Below are positions 1,196 through 7,574 of a DNA stretch of 7,574 bases, in pieces; the first letter of the stretch is position 1; each line of letters starts with the position of its first letter. The stretch spans positions 1-7,574 of the forward strand of contig JBHLPL010000093.1 in NCBI GenBank assembly GCA_048939465.1. Reading direction: 5' to 3'. The notes under the pieces were generated by a model. That model made no database searches, was not told the DNA's origin, and saw only the letters and a program-made list of their open reading frames with translations. The DNA comes from Promethearchaeota archaeon (GTDB lineage Archaea > Asgardarchaeota > Odinarchaeia > Odinarchaeales > JBHLKK01). The position numbers and the translations under genes are program-made.

Positions 1196-1249
1196 CTTAA
1201 GGGGCCCGTGGCCTAGCCAGGATAGGGCACTGGCCTTCTAAGCCAGTAG

Positions 1250-1277
1250 ATCTGCCATGGAACCGAGCAGAGCTGAA
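1250..1277 (+). other. 28-nt tRNA intron at position 46/47 (relaxed BHB)
   Basis: Central helix CAGT/GCTG, bulges AG|A and AA|T, intron helix TCTGC/GCAGA. Removal yields a standard 5-nt variable loop. Confidence 0.88.
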
Positions 1278-1290
1278 TCAGGGGTTCAAA

Positions 1291-1318
1291 TGCCTTTTCA
1301 ATAAGAATGGGCTGAAAT
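1291..1318 (+). other. 28-nt tRNA intron at position 59/60 (strict BHB)
   Basis: T-stem AGGGG/CCCCT serves as the exon helix; central helix TTCA/TGAA; bulges AA|T and AT|T; intron hairpin GCCTTTTC-AATAA-GAATGGGC. Removal restores the T-loop TTCAAAT. Confidence 0.92.
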
Positions 1319-1335
1319 TCCCCTCGGGCCCGCCA

Positions 1336-1340: not shown

Positions 1341-1363
1341 GGACTGTTTCAACGGTGTGGTTG

Positions 1364-2428
1364 ATGGATTCCGTCTTATGTTTAAGCATTTCAAAGGATA
1401 GAGGAGAAAAAGCAAGGCGACTTCTGAAAACCCTAGGACTTTTCAATGAGGATTGGACAATAGAAACCGACGATGTTCGGTTGTATATTCCATTACTACG
1501 AAGGCCGTCTTCAGACGAAGACAGAAAAATCTCAGAAGAGATATGCCAATATGAGATAGTCCACAGAAGCCTTAACGCTAGAGCAAAGAAGAGGTCTAGG
1601 AACCTGAAAGGATTCTTGACCAACAAACTCACGGCGTCTCAACTTAAACTGCTCCCTAGGGCATTTGATATTATCGGTGACATTGCAGTAATAGAAATAC
1701 CACCAGAACTTAGAAGTGTAAAGAAAAAAATTGGAGATGCCTTGATTGCAATTCACAGAAATGTGAATTCTGTATTTGCCAAGGCCGGTAGTGTAAGAGG
1801 CAAATACCGGACTAGAATGCTGGAGCACATTGCAGGAGTGAACAAAACCGAGACAACCTATCGTGAACATGGGTGTGCATATCAGCTTGACGTCTCAAAG
1901 GTATATTTCAGCCCGCGTCTATCTGCAGAAAGGGGAAGAGTAGCTGCTCAGATCAAGCCTCAAGAAGTTGTGCTAGATATGTTTGCAGGCGTCGGACCTT
2001 TTTCAGTCTTGATAGCCAAAACCAAAGGGGTTAATGTATATGCGATTGACATCAATCCGTATGCGATTTATTATTTAAGAAAAAACATCCTAGCAAACCA
2101 AGTCAATAGCTTGGTTACTGCATACCTAGGAGAAGCGAGAGAAATAGTCGAGAAAAACTATCGGAGAATCGCCGACAGAGTGATCATGAACCTTCCCGAA
2201 GAAGCGAGTCGATATTTGGATGTAGCATGTTTAGCCATCAAACGGAGTGGAGGAACCATACACTTCTATGAGTTCAGATCATCAAATGCACCAGTTGAGG
2301 AAGCCATAGCTGAGACTTCAAATAAAATCCAGGCCTATGGAAGAAAATTGGAGAGTATTTCCGGGAGGAAAATCAAAGAAAGTGCACCTTTCAAGTGGCA
2401 TGTTGGTTTGGATATCAAAATAAAGTGA
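1364..2428 (+). CDS. trm5: tRNA m1G37 methyltransferase, Trm5/Met-10+ family
   Basis: Motifs LPRAFDIIGDIAVIEI, YREHGC.YQLDVSKVYFSPRLS.ER, VLDMFAGVGPF, AIDINP and RVIMNLP; N-terminal D1 domain present. ATG 1364 is preferred because GGTG lies at 1354-1357; the ORF can extend to GTG 1355. Confidence 0.92.
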   Translation: MDSVLCLSISKDRGEKARRLLKTLGLFNEDWTIETDDVRLYIPLLRRPSSDEDRKISEEICQYEIVHRSLNARAKKRSRNLKGFLTNKLTASQLKLLPRAFDIIGDIAVIEIPPELRSVKKKIGDALIAIHRNVNSVFAKAGSVRGKYRTRMLEHIAGVNKTETTYREHGCAYQLDVSKVYFSPRLSAERGRVAAQIKPQEVVLDMFAGVGPFSVLIAKTKGVNVYAIDINPYAIYYLRKNILANQVNSLVTAYLGEAREIVEKNYRRIADRVIMNLPEEASRYLDVACLAIKRSGGTIHFYEFRSSNAPVEEAIAETSNKIQAYGRKLESISGRKIKESAPFKWHVGLDIKIK

Positions 2429-2437
2429 CAGAACTCC

Positions 2438-2884
2438 TTAGATAATAATAGTAGAAGTGATAAGTTGTTGAGGGTTTTTAAGAAGGGATATCATTTTGCG
2501 ATTCAAATCGATAGCTGCTTTGTCCGCTCTAATCATGAGAGTACGTCCACAAATAAAATCGCTTTTGCGTCCGACTATATCTGAGGAGTGTGAAAAAGTC
2601 AGATCAGGATGACCATATCCAGTTATTACCTCCTTGAACTTGCCGACACCAAGAACTACCTGAATTTCTGCGCCTTCACAGCATGCGAATTCTTTGAATT
2701 CTGGACTTAGATCTCTTATCGATCTGTCGGCATTTACTCCGATGACGCAAGTACCTCTACTTCCGACAGTGGGAGCCATTGTTAATTCAAACGTGGTCTG
2801 GTGCGTTGCAGTTATATTGGGATGACCACATGCTTTGACGATTTCGATAGTCTTAGTCAATCGATTGCCTCGCAGTCTTTTCAT
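2438..2884 (-). CDS. DUF371 family protein
   Basis: Motifs GHPNITATH.TTFELT, RGTCVIGVNAD, G.GHPDLT, IVGRKS.FIC.RTLMIRADKAA.DL. Confidence 0.88.
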   Translation of the reverse strand: MKRLRGNRLTKTIEIVKACGHPNITATHQTTFELTMAPTVGSRGTCVIGVNADRSIRDLSPEFKEFACCEGAEIQVVLGVGKFKEVITGYGHPDLTFSHSSDIVGRKSDFICGRTLMIRADKAAIDLNRKMISLLKNPQQLITSTIII

Positions 2885-2969
2885 CTTTTTCTCCGCAAAA
2901 AGACCCCATCTGAAAGGGTGAAGATGAATTGCGGTATGTTTAAATGATTTTTTGGTAATTAAGTTTTGG

Positions 2970-3239
2970 GTAAGACACTCGTAAGAGCAAGGTTGATCGA
3001 CGGCATGGGTGTAACATTCAGTCTGGGAGCGCAGGCCTTGTGGGTGTATCCTGCTTGACGGGGCTACTAGCTGTTTTTGGCACAGTATGGAGCGGATCAG
3101 CCCAAAGGCTGAAAGAGATCTTCCTGTGCAGCCCTGAATTCGGAGTACAGAAACCTCCCCTCTGAGAAGCCGAAGTTTACTCAGGTGTATAAGGCAGGGA
3201 GAAGGAGGAGGCTCCTTGCGAAAGCTGGGAGCAGCACAC
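2970..3239 (+). ncRNA. Structured non-coding RNA ending in an IS200/IS605 right-end-type hairpin; possible divergent omega-RNA or IS remnant
   Basis: GCTCCT-T-GC-GAAA-GC-T-GGGAGC (3211-3232) followed by AGCACAC aligns position for position with 1148-1175. Nested helices: GCACAG/CTGTGC (3080-3129), CAGCC-CAAA-GGCTG, CGGGGCT/AGCCCTG, CTGAG..CTCAG and CTCCC/GGGAG. G-U pairs favour the + strand. TTTAAAT box at 2939-2945. The 5' limit is approximate. Confidence 0.55.
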
Positions 3240-3319
3240 TAGTTATTATACGCTAAACAACCTAAATTAATTAAAGATAAGATATTATTGTTCCTAGCCA
3301 TCCAGTTTATTAAATCTCG

Positions 3320-4006
3320 GTGAAATCCTTGTCAAATAAGCGATCATTGGAAGAAAAGCAAAGAACAATAGAGCGATTGAAAAAATCGGGCTCAGTGAGT
3401 GATCCTAAAGTCATACAAGCATTCCTGAAGGTTCCTAGAGAGGAATTTGTGAATCCAGATTTAAGAAATGAGGCCTATATAGATACTCCTCTTCCGATAG
3501 GGCATGGTCAAACCATATCTGCGATTCACATGGTACTAATGATGTCAGAAGTTCTGGACCTGCAAATAGGGCACAAGATGTTAGAAGTCGGTGCAGGTTC
3601 AGGCTATCACGCAGCGATATGCGCTGAGATTGTGGCTCCACAAGACGCCGGTAATAAAGGACATGTGTTCTCTATCGAGAGAGTACCAAATCTAGCAGAA
3701 TTTGCTAAGAAGAATCTGGAACGAGCAGGATATGGTGATAGAGTCACAGTTATCTTGGGGGATGGGACATGTGGCCTTCAAGAGGAGGCACCTTTTGACC
3801 GCATTCTCGTAACAGCTGCGGGTCCAACAATACCGAGGCCGCTGATCGAACAGTTGAAAGAAACGGGAAAACTAGTTATACCGATAGGACAATTACATCT
3901 GTGGCAGGATCTTGTCTTGGTTGAAAAGACCAAGAGAGGAATAAGGAAAAAGAGACTATGTGGAGTAGCATTTGTTCCCCTTAAAGGAAAATATGGATGG
4001 AAGTAA
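3320..4006 (+). CDS. pcm: Protein-L-isoaspartate O-methyltransferase
   Basis: Motifs VPREEFV, AYIDTPLPIGHGQTISAIHM, LEVGAGSGYHAA, GDGT.G..EEAPFDRILVTAA, QLKETGKLVIP, VAFVPL. Confidence 0.95.
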   Translation: MKSLSNKRSLEEKQRTIERLKKSGSVSDPKVIQAFLKVPREEFVNPDLRNEAYIDTPLPIGHGQTISAIHMVLMMSEVLDLQIGHKMLEVGAGSGYHAAICAEIVAPQDAGNKGHVFSIERVPNLAEFAKKNLERAGYGDRVTVILGDGTCGLQEEAPFDRILVTAAGPTIPRPLIEQLKETGKLVIPIGQLHLWQDLVLVEKTKRGIRKKRLCGVAFVPLKGKYGWK

Positions 4007-4077
4007 TTCAGAAGAGCAAAAAACAGGATAAAGTGTTAAGTAGAAAGGAATTGATTTCATTAGGTGAGGAAATACCA

Positions 4078-4695
4078 ATGAGTGGATTGGAGGAATTGAT
4101 AGAAAAGGCCAAGGAGCTTAAGAGGAAAGGCTTAACAACAGAGGAAATAGCGAATATACTGAACGTGCAAACTGATACTGCAACATGGCTATTAGTTAAG
4201 GCAGAGAAAGGTGTAAGAAGAACCGAGCCAAGGGACGTATTTGTCGACTGGAGTGTCATCGGTAGAGATCCGGCCCGACTTGAGCTCATGGGAATAATGC
4301 TTGCTAGTCTGATAGACGAGGCCATGGCAGACGGGAGTATCGAGGAGCCAGATATGATCGCAGGAGTGGATGCTGACGGCGGACCGTTAGCCACTATCAT
4401 TGCGCGAGAGTTGGAAAAACCATTGGCAATAATCAGGTGGAGGCATAGTGCAGAAGGAAAGAAGGACGAGCAACACCTTAGCATAGTAGACTCAAATTTC
4501 GGAGATGTCTATGGAAAGAAGATTTTGCTTGTAGATGACGTAATCACGACTGGAATTATGATACATGAAATAGCTAATGCCTCAAAAAAGACCAACACAA
4601 GGATCGTTGGTGCAGTTGTTATAGCAAACAAAACAAGTACTGATGAGGTTGACGGTGTGCCCTTACGTTGCGTCATAAAGGTAACTGCAATTTGA
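4078..4695 (+). CDS. gfcR: HTH + PRTase-like transcriptional regulator (orotate phosphoribosyltransferase-like, GfcR family)
   Basis: N-terminal LEELIEKAKELKRKGLTTEEIANILNV...ATWLL, DVFVDWSVIG, and the PRPP-binding loop LLVDDVITTG. ATG 4078 follows the RBS AGGTGAGG, so the ORF-track start at 3997 is too far upstream. Confidence 0.85.
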   Translation: MSGLEELIEKAKELKRKGLTTEEIANILNVQTDTATWLLVKAEKGVRRTEPRDVFVDWSVIGRDPARLELMGIMLASLIDEAMADGSIEEPDMIAGVDADGGPLATIIARELEKPLAIIRWRHSAEGKKDEQHLSIVDSNFGDVYGKKILLVDDVITTGIMIHEIANASKKTNTRIVGAVVIANKTSTDEVDGVPLRCVIKVTAI

Positions 4696-4725
4696 TGAAA
4701 ACCCTTGTTGGAATCTGCATCATAT

Positions 4726-5929
4726 CTAAGTTTTTTTCATCAAAGCTATGAAGAATCCTGGCGTATCATGCAGATCGGGATAAAATCGCTGTAGATGCTT
4801 CGCTTCAGGGAATTGCTCTTGCAGTTCACCAGACGACCCGTATAAATAGACTTGATCAATAACAGAAAAACCGAAATGCTCCGTTGCATATTTGATATTA
4901 GATTCATTCTCTTCAGCCGATAAAGTGCATGTACTGTAAGCAATGATGCCGTCTTTCTTTACGAGTTTCCCGGCTACGCCAAGAAACTGCCTCTGGTATG
5001 CTGCACACGCTAATATTTCATTTCTTGTCTTTGTCTCATACAATTTAGGACGATGGCCCAGAGCAGAGCATGGGGGATCGATTAGTACGCGATCTGCTCT
5101 TAAAGAATACTCTTCAGCCAATCCGAGGGCATTCCGCTGAAGAATCTTGACATTGGTTATACCCAATCTCTGAGTGTGATGGTTTAGTGTTTGGAGACGA
5201 GACGGAGAACGATCTACAGCCAATATTGTTCCCCTGTTATTCATTAGCTGAGCCATGTGTGTGGTTTTTCCACCTGGTGCAGCGCACATATCAATGATAA
5301 ATTCATTTGGTTTTGGGTCCAGAATTCGACTTGTTAGAATAGCAGGTAGAGATTGACCGTAGAAATATCCTAACTGATACAGTGGTGTTTCTCGCAAGCT
5401 TAAAACATGGTATTTGGATTTGATAACCTCTACAGCTAATCCTCGTCTCTTCTGAAGTATCTCTTTACTACTCATCTTTGCTATACCAGTAGCTATACGG
5501 TTACCATATTTGTCAACTATGAGAGTCTTATCTCCAGGATGGATTTTGCCTGTTTTAATTACTCCAGGCGCATAGAGACAGGCACCCAGCATCACGCTTT
5601 CTGCTGCGAAATTTATCCGCTACAATCCTCTTGTCAGCATCCGGTATATCGAAAGGGCCCTTGACAGGAAAGGAAATCATTTCGGTTATCTTCATATCGG
5701 ATTTAGCTTCTACGCCTTTCTCAGCCAGTAGGCTGATAAGCCGTTCTGGTGAAATTCTAATAGTGTTTGCCCTAATGGTGTAATTCTTTCCGGGCTTTCT
5801 TAATGCAGCAATAATGCGTTCTGCTCGATTCAGACCGTATGATTCGATAAACACTCCAATAACGTCTGAGGAGTAACCATATTTCTCTGATAAAACCATA
5901 ATATCCGAACCATGCATATGAACCACCAT
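4726..5929 (-). CDS. PUA-domain RsmB/NOL1/NOP2 RNA m5C methyltransferase (NSUN6-like), interrupted by one extra nucleotide at 5608-5611
   Basis: ORF 5555-5929 (EKYGY, TIRANT, KRIVADKF) and ORF 4726-5595 (GACLYAPGV, QSLPAILTSRILDP, IDMCAAPGGKTTH, VLIDPPCSALG, YSTCTL, RFYPDLHDTPGFFIA) join as DKF-AAESVMLGA if one base of TTTC is skipped. Confidence 0.88.
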
Positions 5930-7055: not shown

Positions 7056-7574
7056 TCACTCAGTGCCTGATTTCCAGTCGGAAAGATACTTTATTTGCTC
7101 TTCGGTTAACTTGTCAATCGATATTCCTAATGCCTCCAGTTTGAGTTTTGCAACTTGCTCATCAATCTCTGGAGGAACTTTGTACACATCTGGCTTGAGT
7201 TCACTGCCATACTTTACCAGATACTCTACGGAAAGCGATTGGTCACTGAAGGACATATCCATAACCTTTCCAGCCCATTTATCTTGGGACGCTGGGGTGG
7301 CCTTTTCCGCCTAGAACCATGAATCACGGCTAGCCTGCGGCGGCCAGATTTACTAAACGTCCCTCAGCAAGCAGATATAATCTTCGACCATCTTTTAGCA
7401 TGTACTCATCCACATTTGGTCTAATTCTTTGTTTTTTGACGGTCATGGCCTCCAAATCTGACAGGGCGAGCTCCACATTGAATTGACCCGTTGAAGGAGA
7501 CTCCAACGTGTGGCCTGTGTTGGCAAGTATCGCCCCATCCTTCATCAACTCCATATGCTCCTTACGAATGACAT
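7056..7574 (-). CDS. ahcY: S-adenosyl-L-homocysteine hydrolase, 3' part; spliced from exons 7574-7510, 7482-7335, 7304-7290 and 7267-7056
   Basis: Spliced product: [92 protein letters not shown]...[43 protein letters not shown]. This is the typical SAHH C-terminal half, with frame conserved across all junctions. Confidence 0.95.
7268..7289 (-). other. 22-nt BHB mRNA intron in ahcY (frameshifting if retained)
   Basis: Minus strand: ACC-CCAG-CG|T-CCCA-AGATAAA-TGGG-CTGG-AA|A-GGT, a strict BHB. Splicing gives AGC GAG GTT ATG (SEVM). Confidence 0.92.
7305..7334 (-). other. 30-nt BHB mRNA intron in ahcY (contains in-frame TAG and TGA)
   Basis: Minus strand: TGGCC-G-CCGC-AG|G-CTAG-CCGTG-ATT-CATGG-TT-CTAG-GCGG-AA|A-A-GGCCA. 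Splicing gives GCA GAA GGC CAC (AEGH). Confidence 0.92.
7483..7509 (-). other. 27-nt BHB mRNA intron in ahcY (in frame, no stop)
   Basis: Minus strand: GGCC-AC|A-CGTTGGAG-TCTC-CTTCAACG-GGTC-AA|T. Central helix GGCC/GGTC, two 3-nt bulges, 8-bp intron hairpin, weak exon helix. Splicing gives GGC CAC TTC AAT (GHFN). Confidence 0.88.

Follow-up and report, generated by a model that had tools for sequence, protein, structure and literature searches.

The 15 bases at positions 7290-7304 (minus strand) are very probably a genuine coding micro-exon of the genome's single SAHH gene, which appears to be cut by five short BHB introns that EndA and RtcB would splice out, likely constitutively. The window that we analyzed is the whole of contig C24 (7,574 nt) of a 152-contig, 1.96-Mb MAG (genome label G000). 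At its right end lies the 3′ half of an AdoHcyase (PF05221) gene, SAHH (ahcY), encoded on the minus strand; the 5′ half is on contig C118, and the two contigs overlap by 77 nt at the window end. A profile search of the genome's contigs found SAHH to be the sole gene of family PF05221, and in the unspliced DNA it is represented by three Pfam pieces above the cut-off.

The inserts were located by tblastn with an intron-less Bathyarchaeia SAHH, followed by inspection. Relative to its homologues the gene has five of them, A (28 nt, after GGCEE), B (32 nt, after WDFD), C (27 nt), D (30 nt), and E (22 nt), and the exons measure, from 1 to 6, 450, 102, 333, 148, 15, and 212 nt. Within the window, reading along the minus strand, the 3′ end of exon 3 (7510-7574; the rest of its 333 nt is on C118) is followed by intron C (7483-7509), which is in frame and stop-free, has a canonical BHB, and splits the protein between GH and FNVE, after NTGH. 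Exon 4 (7335-7482) encodes FNVE...LVNLAAA and the first base of a Glu codon, and BHB D draws on the last 12 nt of this exon (7346-7335) for one strand of its outer helix, one strand of its central helix, and two bulge bases. Intron D (7305-7334) has a canonical BHB and contains a UAG in the exon-4 frame. The micro-exon, exon 5, then provides the last two Glu bases, Gly-His-Pro-Ser, and the first base of the next Glu. Intron E (7268-7289), also with a canonical BHB, shifts the frame and contains an in-frame UAA. Exon 6 (7056-7267, including the TGA stop) encodes EVMDMSF...SGTE, and its bases G7266-U7264 take part in the outer helix of BHB E.

Three reading frames are used across this region: the ...LVNLAAA frame stops just past 7335, GHPS occupies 7302-7291, and VMDMSF... 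runs from 7265. Removal of D and E, each cut after the second bulge base, gives ...LVNLAAA-EGHPS-EVMDMSF, so that the two junctions restore AAAEGHPSEVMDMSF, colinear with intron-less homologues. When all five inserts are removed, the product is a 419-aa SAHH that aligns with zero gaps both to its 419-aa counterparts from the sister genus, which lack introns (identity, 73-75%), and to Bathyarchaeia proteins of 418 aa (identity, 66-68%). Conservation of EGHPS and colinearity with these 418-419-aa homologues place the spliced protein in the SAHH family, GHP hinge included, and a peptide made across the spliced junctions would cover the stretch LVNLAAAEGHPSEVMDMSF. A preliminary description of this DNA had proposed a 15-nt exon between two introns at 7290-7304, and this was borne out: the coordinates agree, the minus-strand sequence from 7304 to 7290 is AAGGCCACCCCAGCG, and both junctions are colinear with the homologues. 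Its statement that GHP is a conserved active-site element also holds, as GHP belongs to the C-terminal hinge that binds the adenine ring (PMC4647836); in mouse SAHH, His353 lies in this hinge, and the His backbone binds adenine N6/N7 (PMC4647836).

BHB geometry was applied at the junctions set by the protein alignment, and a script confirmed the pairings. A BHB has a 4-bp central helix, formed between the last bases of the exon and the 3′ end of the intron, and a 3-nt bulge on each strand; cutting takes place after the second base of each bulge. In BHB D, the outer exon-exon helix joins U7346-C7342 to G7302-A7298 (5 bp, beyond a G7341/A7303 mismatch), the central helix joins C7340-C7337 to G7310-G7307 (4 bp, CCGC/GCGG), the bulges are A7336, G7335, G7334 (AGG) and A7306, A7305, A7304 (AAA), with the predicted cuts before G7334 and A7304, and the inner helix is CUAG/CUAG (4 bp). 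In BHB E, the outer helix is short, with A7298, C7297, and C7296 paired to G7266, G7265, and U7264 (3 bp), the central helix joins CCAG (7295-7292) to CUGG (7273-7270; 4 bp), the bulges are C7291, G7290, U7289 (CGU) and A7269, A7268, A7267 (AAA), with the predicted cuts before U7289 and A7267, and the inner helix is CCCA/UGGG (4 bp). Flanking helices are present on both sides of the motif in D and in E (hBHBh′). Judged by their sequence, the putative introns D and E thereby show every feature by which a BHB intron is recognized. The other three inserts resemble them: B and C, like D and E, have a complete central helix (4 of 4 pairs), and their inner helices measure 11 and 8 bp, respectively; in A, at an equivalent junction displaced by 2 nt, 3 of the 4 central positions pair, along with 9 inner and 7 outer pairs.

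The micro-exon is made up entirely of motif bases. It had been suggested that nearly all of its bases feed the flanking motifs, and a base-by-base assignment raises this to 15 of 15 inside the BHB footprint: one base of the D 3′ bulge (A7304, its third base), one mismatched base (A7303, opposite G7341), five of the D outer helix, two more of the E outer helix, four of the E central helix, and two of the E bulge. The GGCCA that had been assigned to the exon helix of the upstream intron is indeed the 3′ strand of that helix in D (G7302-A7298), and the ACC and CCAG assigned to the downstream intron do form the exon and central helices of E (7298-7292). The two motifs, which are ∼13 bp apart, have a single base in common, as had been stated; this is A7298, the last of the five D outer-helix bases and the only one claimed by both outer helices. 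Two BHBs that fold independently side by side could hardly leave an exon much shorter than 15 nt.

Motifs of this quality rarely arise by chance at these junctions. When the intron letters were shuffled 200,000 times against unchanged exons, the exact junctions showed a central helix of 4 bp together with an inner helix of 3 bp or more in 18 trials for E, 213 for D, and 588 for B (range, 0.01-0.3%). The 111-nt region as a whole showed no excess of stability over shuffled sequence (z = 0.06); the BHB signal is positional, not thermodynamic.

The spliced frame of SAHH is under strong purifying selection. Among the three species of the genus (G000, G001, and G002), the spliced frame gives a dS of ∼0.4 and a dN/dS of 0.06-0.08, and purifying selection is seen in every exon, including those 3′ of frame-shifting inserts. 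In each of the two other species the gene lies complete on a single contig and has inserts at the same five positions, and between the three species the introns differ by 0-18%, below synonymous sites. Third codon positions are less often variable in the exonic footprints of the five BHBs (3 of 29) than elsewhere (125 of 391; one-sided Fisher P = 0.009), although the D and E footprints alone (1 of 11 variable) are not significant by themselves. Within the micro-exon, variation across the genus is confined to one base, the unpaired A7303, and covariation within D amounts to one G·U to A-U change, among three closely kin genomes. Four independent studies of mangrove and other sediment metagenomes also yielded contigs with the inserts; these contigs cover 7251-7311, 7282-7430, and 7285-7574, and their strain variants match those of a sister species. 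A search of sequencing runs for this locus turned up none from RNA. One low-depth contig (X5) with 22 other letters for 7263-7336 was considered as a processed copy and rejected, as it is another organism's intron-less EGHPSEV.

Three readings that dispense with splicing have to be set against these data. If the gene were a decaying pseudogene, the inserts would be indels in a dead gene, and it is true that the open frame in the DNA is broken four times and that gene callers would give fragments. A dead gene is hard to reconcile with a dN/dS of 0.06-0.08 held in all exons over a dS of ∼0.4 in three species, with insert positions that are conserved and inserts that are more conserved than synonymous sites, with the lack of a second SAHH gene in the genome, or with a BHB lying exactly at the protein-required junction for each insert, and we regard it as highly improbable. 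An assembly or binning artefact, in which the inserts or the C24-C118 join would be unreal, is brought to mind by a 152-contig MAG in which the gene crosses a contig break with an overlap of 77 nt; contigs from four independent studies nevertheless cover the inserts, and two other species have the entire gene, with five identical insert positions, on a single contig, leaving a vanishingly small chance that the inserts are spurious. Given the independent contigs, the shared inserts, the dN/dS, and the conserved introns and footprints, a pseudogene or an assembly artefact is thus practically excluded. The third reading, translational recoding, would leave the RNA unspliced and have the ribosome bypass or frameshift over the inserts. 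These are indeed short hairpins, and gene predictions for the cbf5 intron have been mistaken by others for translational frameshifting (Yokobori et al. 2009, PMC2738675). Recoding would require five events of 22-32 nt in one gene, three of them over in-frame stops; take-off and landing codon pairs are not evident; and the conserved motif is that of an endonuclease substrate, with cut sites at exact codon junctions. Scarcely any likelihood can be granted to it, and we favor removal of the inserts as BHB introns.

The genome encodes the enzymes that such removal would use. A profile search identified two EndA-family genes, of 204 and 191 aa (C90:8954-9568 and C139:31349-31924), each with both PF02778 and PF01974, the N-terminal and catalytic domains, and the presence of two paralogues suggests a hetero-oligomeric enzyme of broad specificity. 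There are also two RtcB genes. One of these, at G000:C31:2961-5708 (minus strand), lies in a 973-aa frame in which the Pfam match is split (1-57 and 45-426) around a ∼1.4-kb insert that is probably an intein. We infer that the SAHH pre-mRNA would fold locally into the BHB motifs, that the tRNA-splicing endonuclease EndA would cut after the second base of each 3-nt bulge, and that RtcB would ligate the resulting 2′,3′-cyclic phosphate and 5′-OH ends; during cutting and joining, the micro-exon would be tethered through 5 bp with exon 4 and 3 bp with exon 6.

When the five introns were compared by blastn-short with each other and with other loci, only one match stood out. The 3′ part of intron E (7286-7268, minus strand) has a 19-nt exact copy at G000:C11:22897-22915 (L126:998-1016; E = 6e-5), which lies in a divergent intergenic region between ORFs of 276 and 228 aa. 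No BHB was found at the C11 copy, and the homologous regions in G001 and G002 are alike at ∼12 of 19 positions.

How the two introns would be removed relative to one another was approached by folding the RNA of window positions 7390-7220 (171 nt) with ViennaRNA, which applies a nearest-neighbor model to RNA alone. The unconstrained optimum contains the outer and central helices of D and the central helix of E. Formation of the strict BHB is predicted to cost 2.4 kcal/mol for D, 2.65 kcal/mol (about 2.7) for E, and 4.2-4.3 kcal/mol for both above the ensemble, and the two are compatible in one fold in which only the terminal pair at A7298 is lost. After in silico removal of D, E would cost 2.85 kcal/mol, and after removal of E, D would cost 1.66 kcal/mol (i.e., a change of <1 kcal/mol in each case), and calculations at 25 and 50°C gave similar values. 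A hybrid BHB between the D 5′ site and the E 3′ site is poor: one of its four central pairs is missing, its inner helix has 2 pairs, and its outer helix is scattered. As to the products, retention of D would place a UAG at the second codon to be completed beyond the 5′ splice site, retention of E would bring in a UAA after four codons, and skipping of the micro-exon would keep the frame and delete EGHPS, including the adenine-binding His.

The preliminary description had further proposed that the tight packing of the two motifs may fix the order of splicing and that exon skipping or partial splicing could act as an on/off control; such a control would switch SAHH and hence the methylation cycle. 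Several features lend this some appeal. The outer helices compete for A7298; if both introns were cut before ligation, the 15-mer would be tethered by 5 plus 3 bp only; an in-frame skip would remove the EGHPS adenine-binding hinge, and retention of either intron would lead to an early stop; D is predicted to be slightly easier to fold once E has gone (from 2.4 to 1.7 kcal/mol); and the C11 copy, if read from the opposite strand, would be antisense to the 3′ splice region. However, the model calculations do not bear out either part of the proposal. Since both BHBs are predicted to coexist (at +4.2 kcal/mol, for the loss of one terminal pair), since the energy gap between the two orders is <1 kcal/mol, and since the hybrid BHB on which skipping would depend is poor, the structure seems to impose no order and nothing seems to favor skipping. 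In addition, E appears to function in other lineages that lack D, where its outer helix likewise has 3 bp, the C11 copy is unconserved in two sister species and does not track their intron-E variants, and we know of no sensor or stimulus-dependent nuclease for archaeal BHB splicing. We therefore consider ordered or regulated splicing unlikely and, on the basis of these models, constitutive splicing without a structurally imposed order most likely. A more specific version, in which the micro-exon is a control point whose weak 5-plus-3-bp tether lets the order or speed of cutting tune the amount of active SAHH, and in which a C11 transcript might act as a guide, is very doubtful. If it were true, transcripts that lack EGHPS in frame or retain an intron would depend on conditions, and the tRNA-splicing machinery would carry out regulated alternative mRNA splicing in a close relative of eukaryotes.

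The two introns that bound the micro-exon differ in their distribution. Exon 6 was searched in 251 genomes of the phylum, and loci in which the match fell within a short frame were fetched. An insert occupies the intron-E codon site, between GHPS and E, in 8 genomes from three families, with lengths of 20-22 nt in this genus, 34 nt in family f13, and 31-32 nt in family f6; between families the intron interiors are unrelated and the BHB geometry is identical. The E central helix is CCAG/CUGG in 6 of the 8 genomes and CUAG/CUAG in the other 2 (G030 and G142, both of family f6), a difference in which the Pro codon changes synonymously and the intron strand changes to match (i.e., a compensatory change). 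The sharing of this site with other families may reflect descent and retention or repeated gain at a favorable site. Intron D was not found among the loci examined outside genus g1, to which G000, G001, and G002 belong, and SAHH has no insert in the four genomes of the sister genus, the class comprising two genera in the genome set used. Where BHB D pairs codons CUG GCC ... GGC CA, the sister genus has UUA GCU ... GGU CA, and these differences are synonymous. Taken together, the restriction of D to one genus, the insert-free sister genus, and the synonymous codon differences indicate that the micro-exon was made by a second gain: this genus would have acquired intron D at a point 15 nt upstream of the intron-E site. 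In another family, SAHH of locus L102 (G023:C270:1200-3100) is broken after GHFDIEN, near the intron-C site, which suggests that further intron positions may exist in the SAHH family.

SAHH does not appear to be the only interrupted gene of this genome. The gatA (Amidase) gene at G000:C77:43519-44908 (minus strand) is found as three colinear pieces with gaps of 26 and 32 nt, as two further short introns would produce, and the open frame of pyrG lacks the first 13 profile positions. Rfam and ARAGORN found nothing in the unmodified window and missed an interrupted tRNA; a tRNA-Arg(TCT) at 1202-1335 (plus strand) is called by ARAGORN only once two ∼28-nt inserts, both at non-canonical positions, are removed. 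A genome-wide census combined a BHB scan (73,108 raw hits) with an ORF-restoring test, which 1,192 candidates passed versus 1,191 random pairs, and a stricter version gave 92 versus 102 expected. There was no enrichment, and a BHB-plus-ORF scan therefore cannot count the mRNA introns of this genome. A candidate NSUN/RsmB-type RNA methyltransferase (ferredoxin-like, PUA, and MTase domains) is encoded by two overlapping ORFs at 4726-5929 (minus strand); a BHB intron was considered there and rejected, as a 1-nt frameshift within an AAATTT run, near 5610, accounts for the break; this would be a sequencing error, real decay, or recoding. SAHH adjoins genes for SAM-dependent methyltransferases, namely Trm5/TYW2 (1355-2428), PCMT (3320-4006), and the NSUN-like gene (4726-5929), and window positions 1355-5929 form a methylation-related neighborhood. 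EAP30 (ESCRT-II), an Asgard signature, had two matches above the Pfam cut-off in G000 and none above it in control archaea, and the host is probably an Asgard archaeon of Odinarchaeia type.

In the literature searched, endonuclease-dependent mRNA splicing has been described in archaea for cbf5 of Crenarchaeota and HVO_1309 of Haloferax, each with a single BHB intron or site, and a 2023 review counts at least two genes spliced in this manner and considers more to be likely (PMC10485636). A close relative of the present case is the BHB intron of the cbf5 pre-mRNA in Aeropyrum and Sulfolobus (Watanabe 2002, Yoshinari 2006, Yokobori 2009; PMC2738675). As is presumed for SAHH, a short BHB intron lies in coding sequence, it is cut by the tRNA-splicing endonuclease and the exons are ligated, gain and loss are lineage-specific, and the organisms have a hetero-oligomeric endonuclease. 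Unlike SAHH, cbf5 has one intron, the splicing of which was shown experimentally; for SAHH, a metabolic enzyme in an Asgard lineage, splicing is inferred and there are five introns, two of them 15 nt apart. In HVO_1309 of Haloferax volcanii (PMC7714728; PMC10485636), an mRNA BHB is likewise cleaved by the splicing endonuclease and the spliced RNA is the main product. That case differs in being a single site in a euryarchaeon and not a multi-intron gene. Its site lies in the 5′ leader and not in the coding sequence.

Outside the archaea, HAC1/XBP1 splicing is carried out by stress-activated IRE1 together with tRNA ligase or RtcB, at two 7-nt stem-loops that bound one intron, and serves as an on/off switch. 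It shares with the proposed SAHH splicing a protein-only, spliceosome-free removal of a short, frame-changing mRNA intron and a ligation of cyclic-phosphate and 5′-OH ends, but its nuclease is stress-activated, whereas no sign of a regulated nuclease was found here. Multi-intron tRNA genes with micro-exons are known from Thermoproteales and from Atabeyarchaeia and Freyarchaeia (PMC11291895; bioRxiv 10.64898/2026.10.13.758758). They are alike in having several BHB introns per transcript and exons of a few bases, in relying on the same enzymes, and, in part, in coming from the same phylum. Their exons, however, are held by the tRNA fold, and the very short ones often need nested, sequential folding, whereas the SAHH micro-exon is protein-coding, would be tethered by 5 plus 3 bp only, and has its BHBs side by side. 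The papers on interrupted Asgard tRNA genes do not mention protein genes (PMC11291895; bioRxiv 10.64898/2026.10.13.758758), and no published report of a comparable multi-intron or micro-exon archaeal mRNA was found in the literature searched. What appears to be new is thus the number of introns in one gene, the micro-exon, and the lineage; the kind of intron and its presumed, cbf5-like working are known.

With five BHB introns in the gene of a housekeeping enzyme, against single introns in the published archaeal cases, the locus bears on archaeal RNA biology and on intron evolution. Gene callers would report this essential SAHH as fragments or as a pseudogene, and the in-frame, 27-nt intron C would be missed altogether. 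The locus also records an intron site that is found across families, whether reused or retained, next to an adjacent, genus-specific gain, and this combination makes intron gain in protein genes datable and testable.
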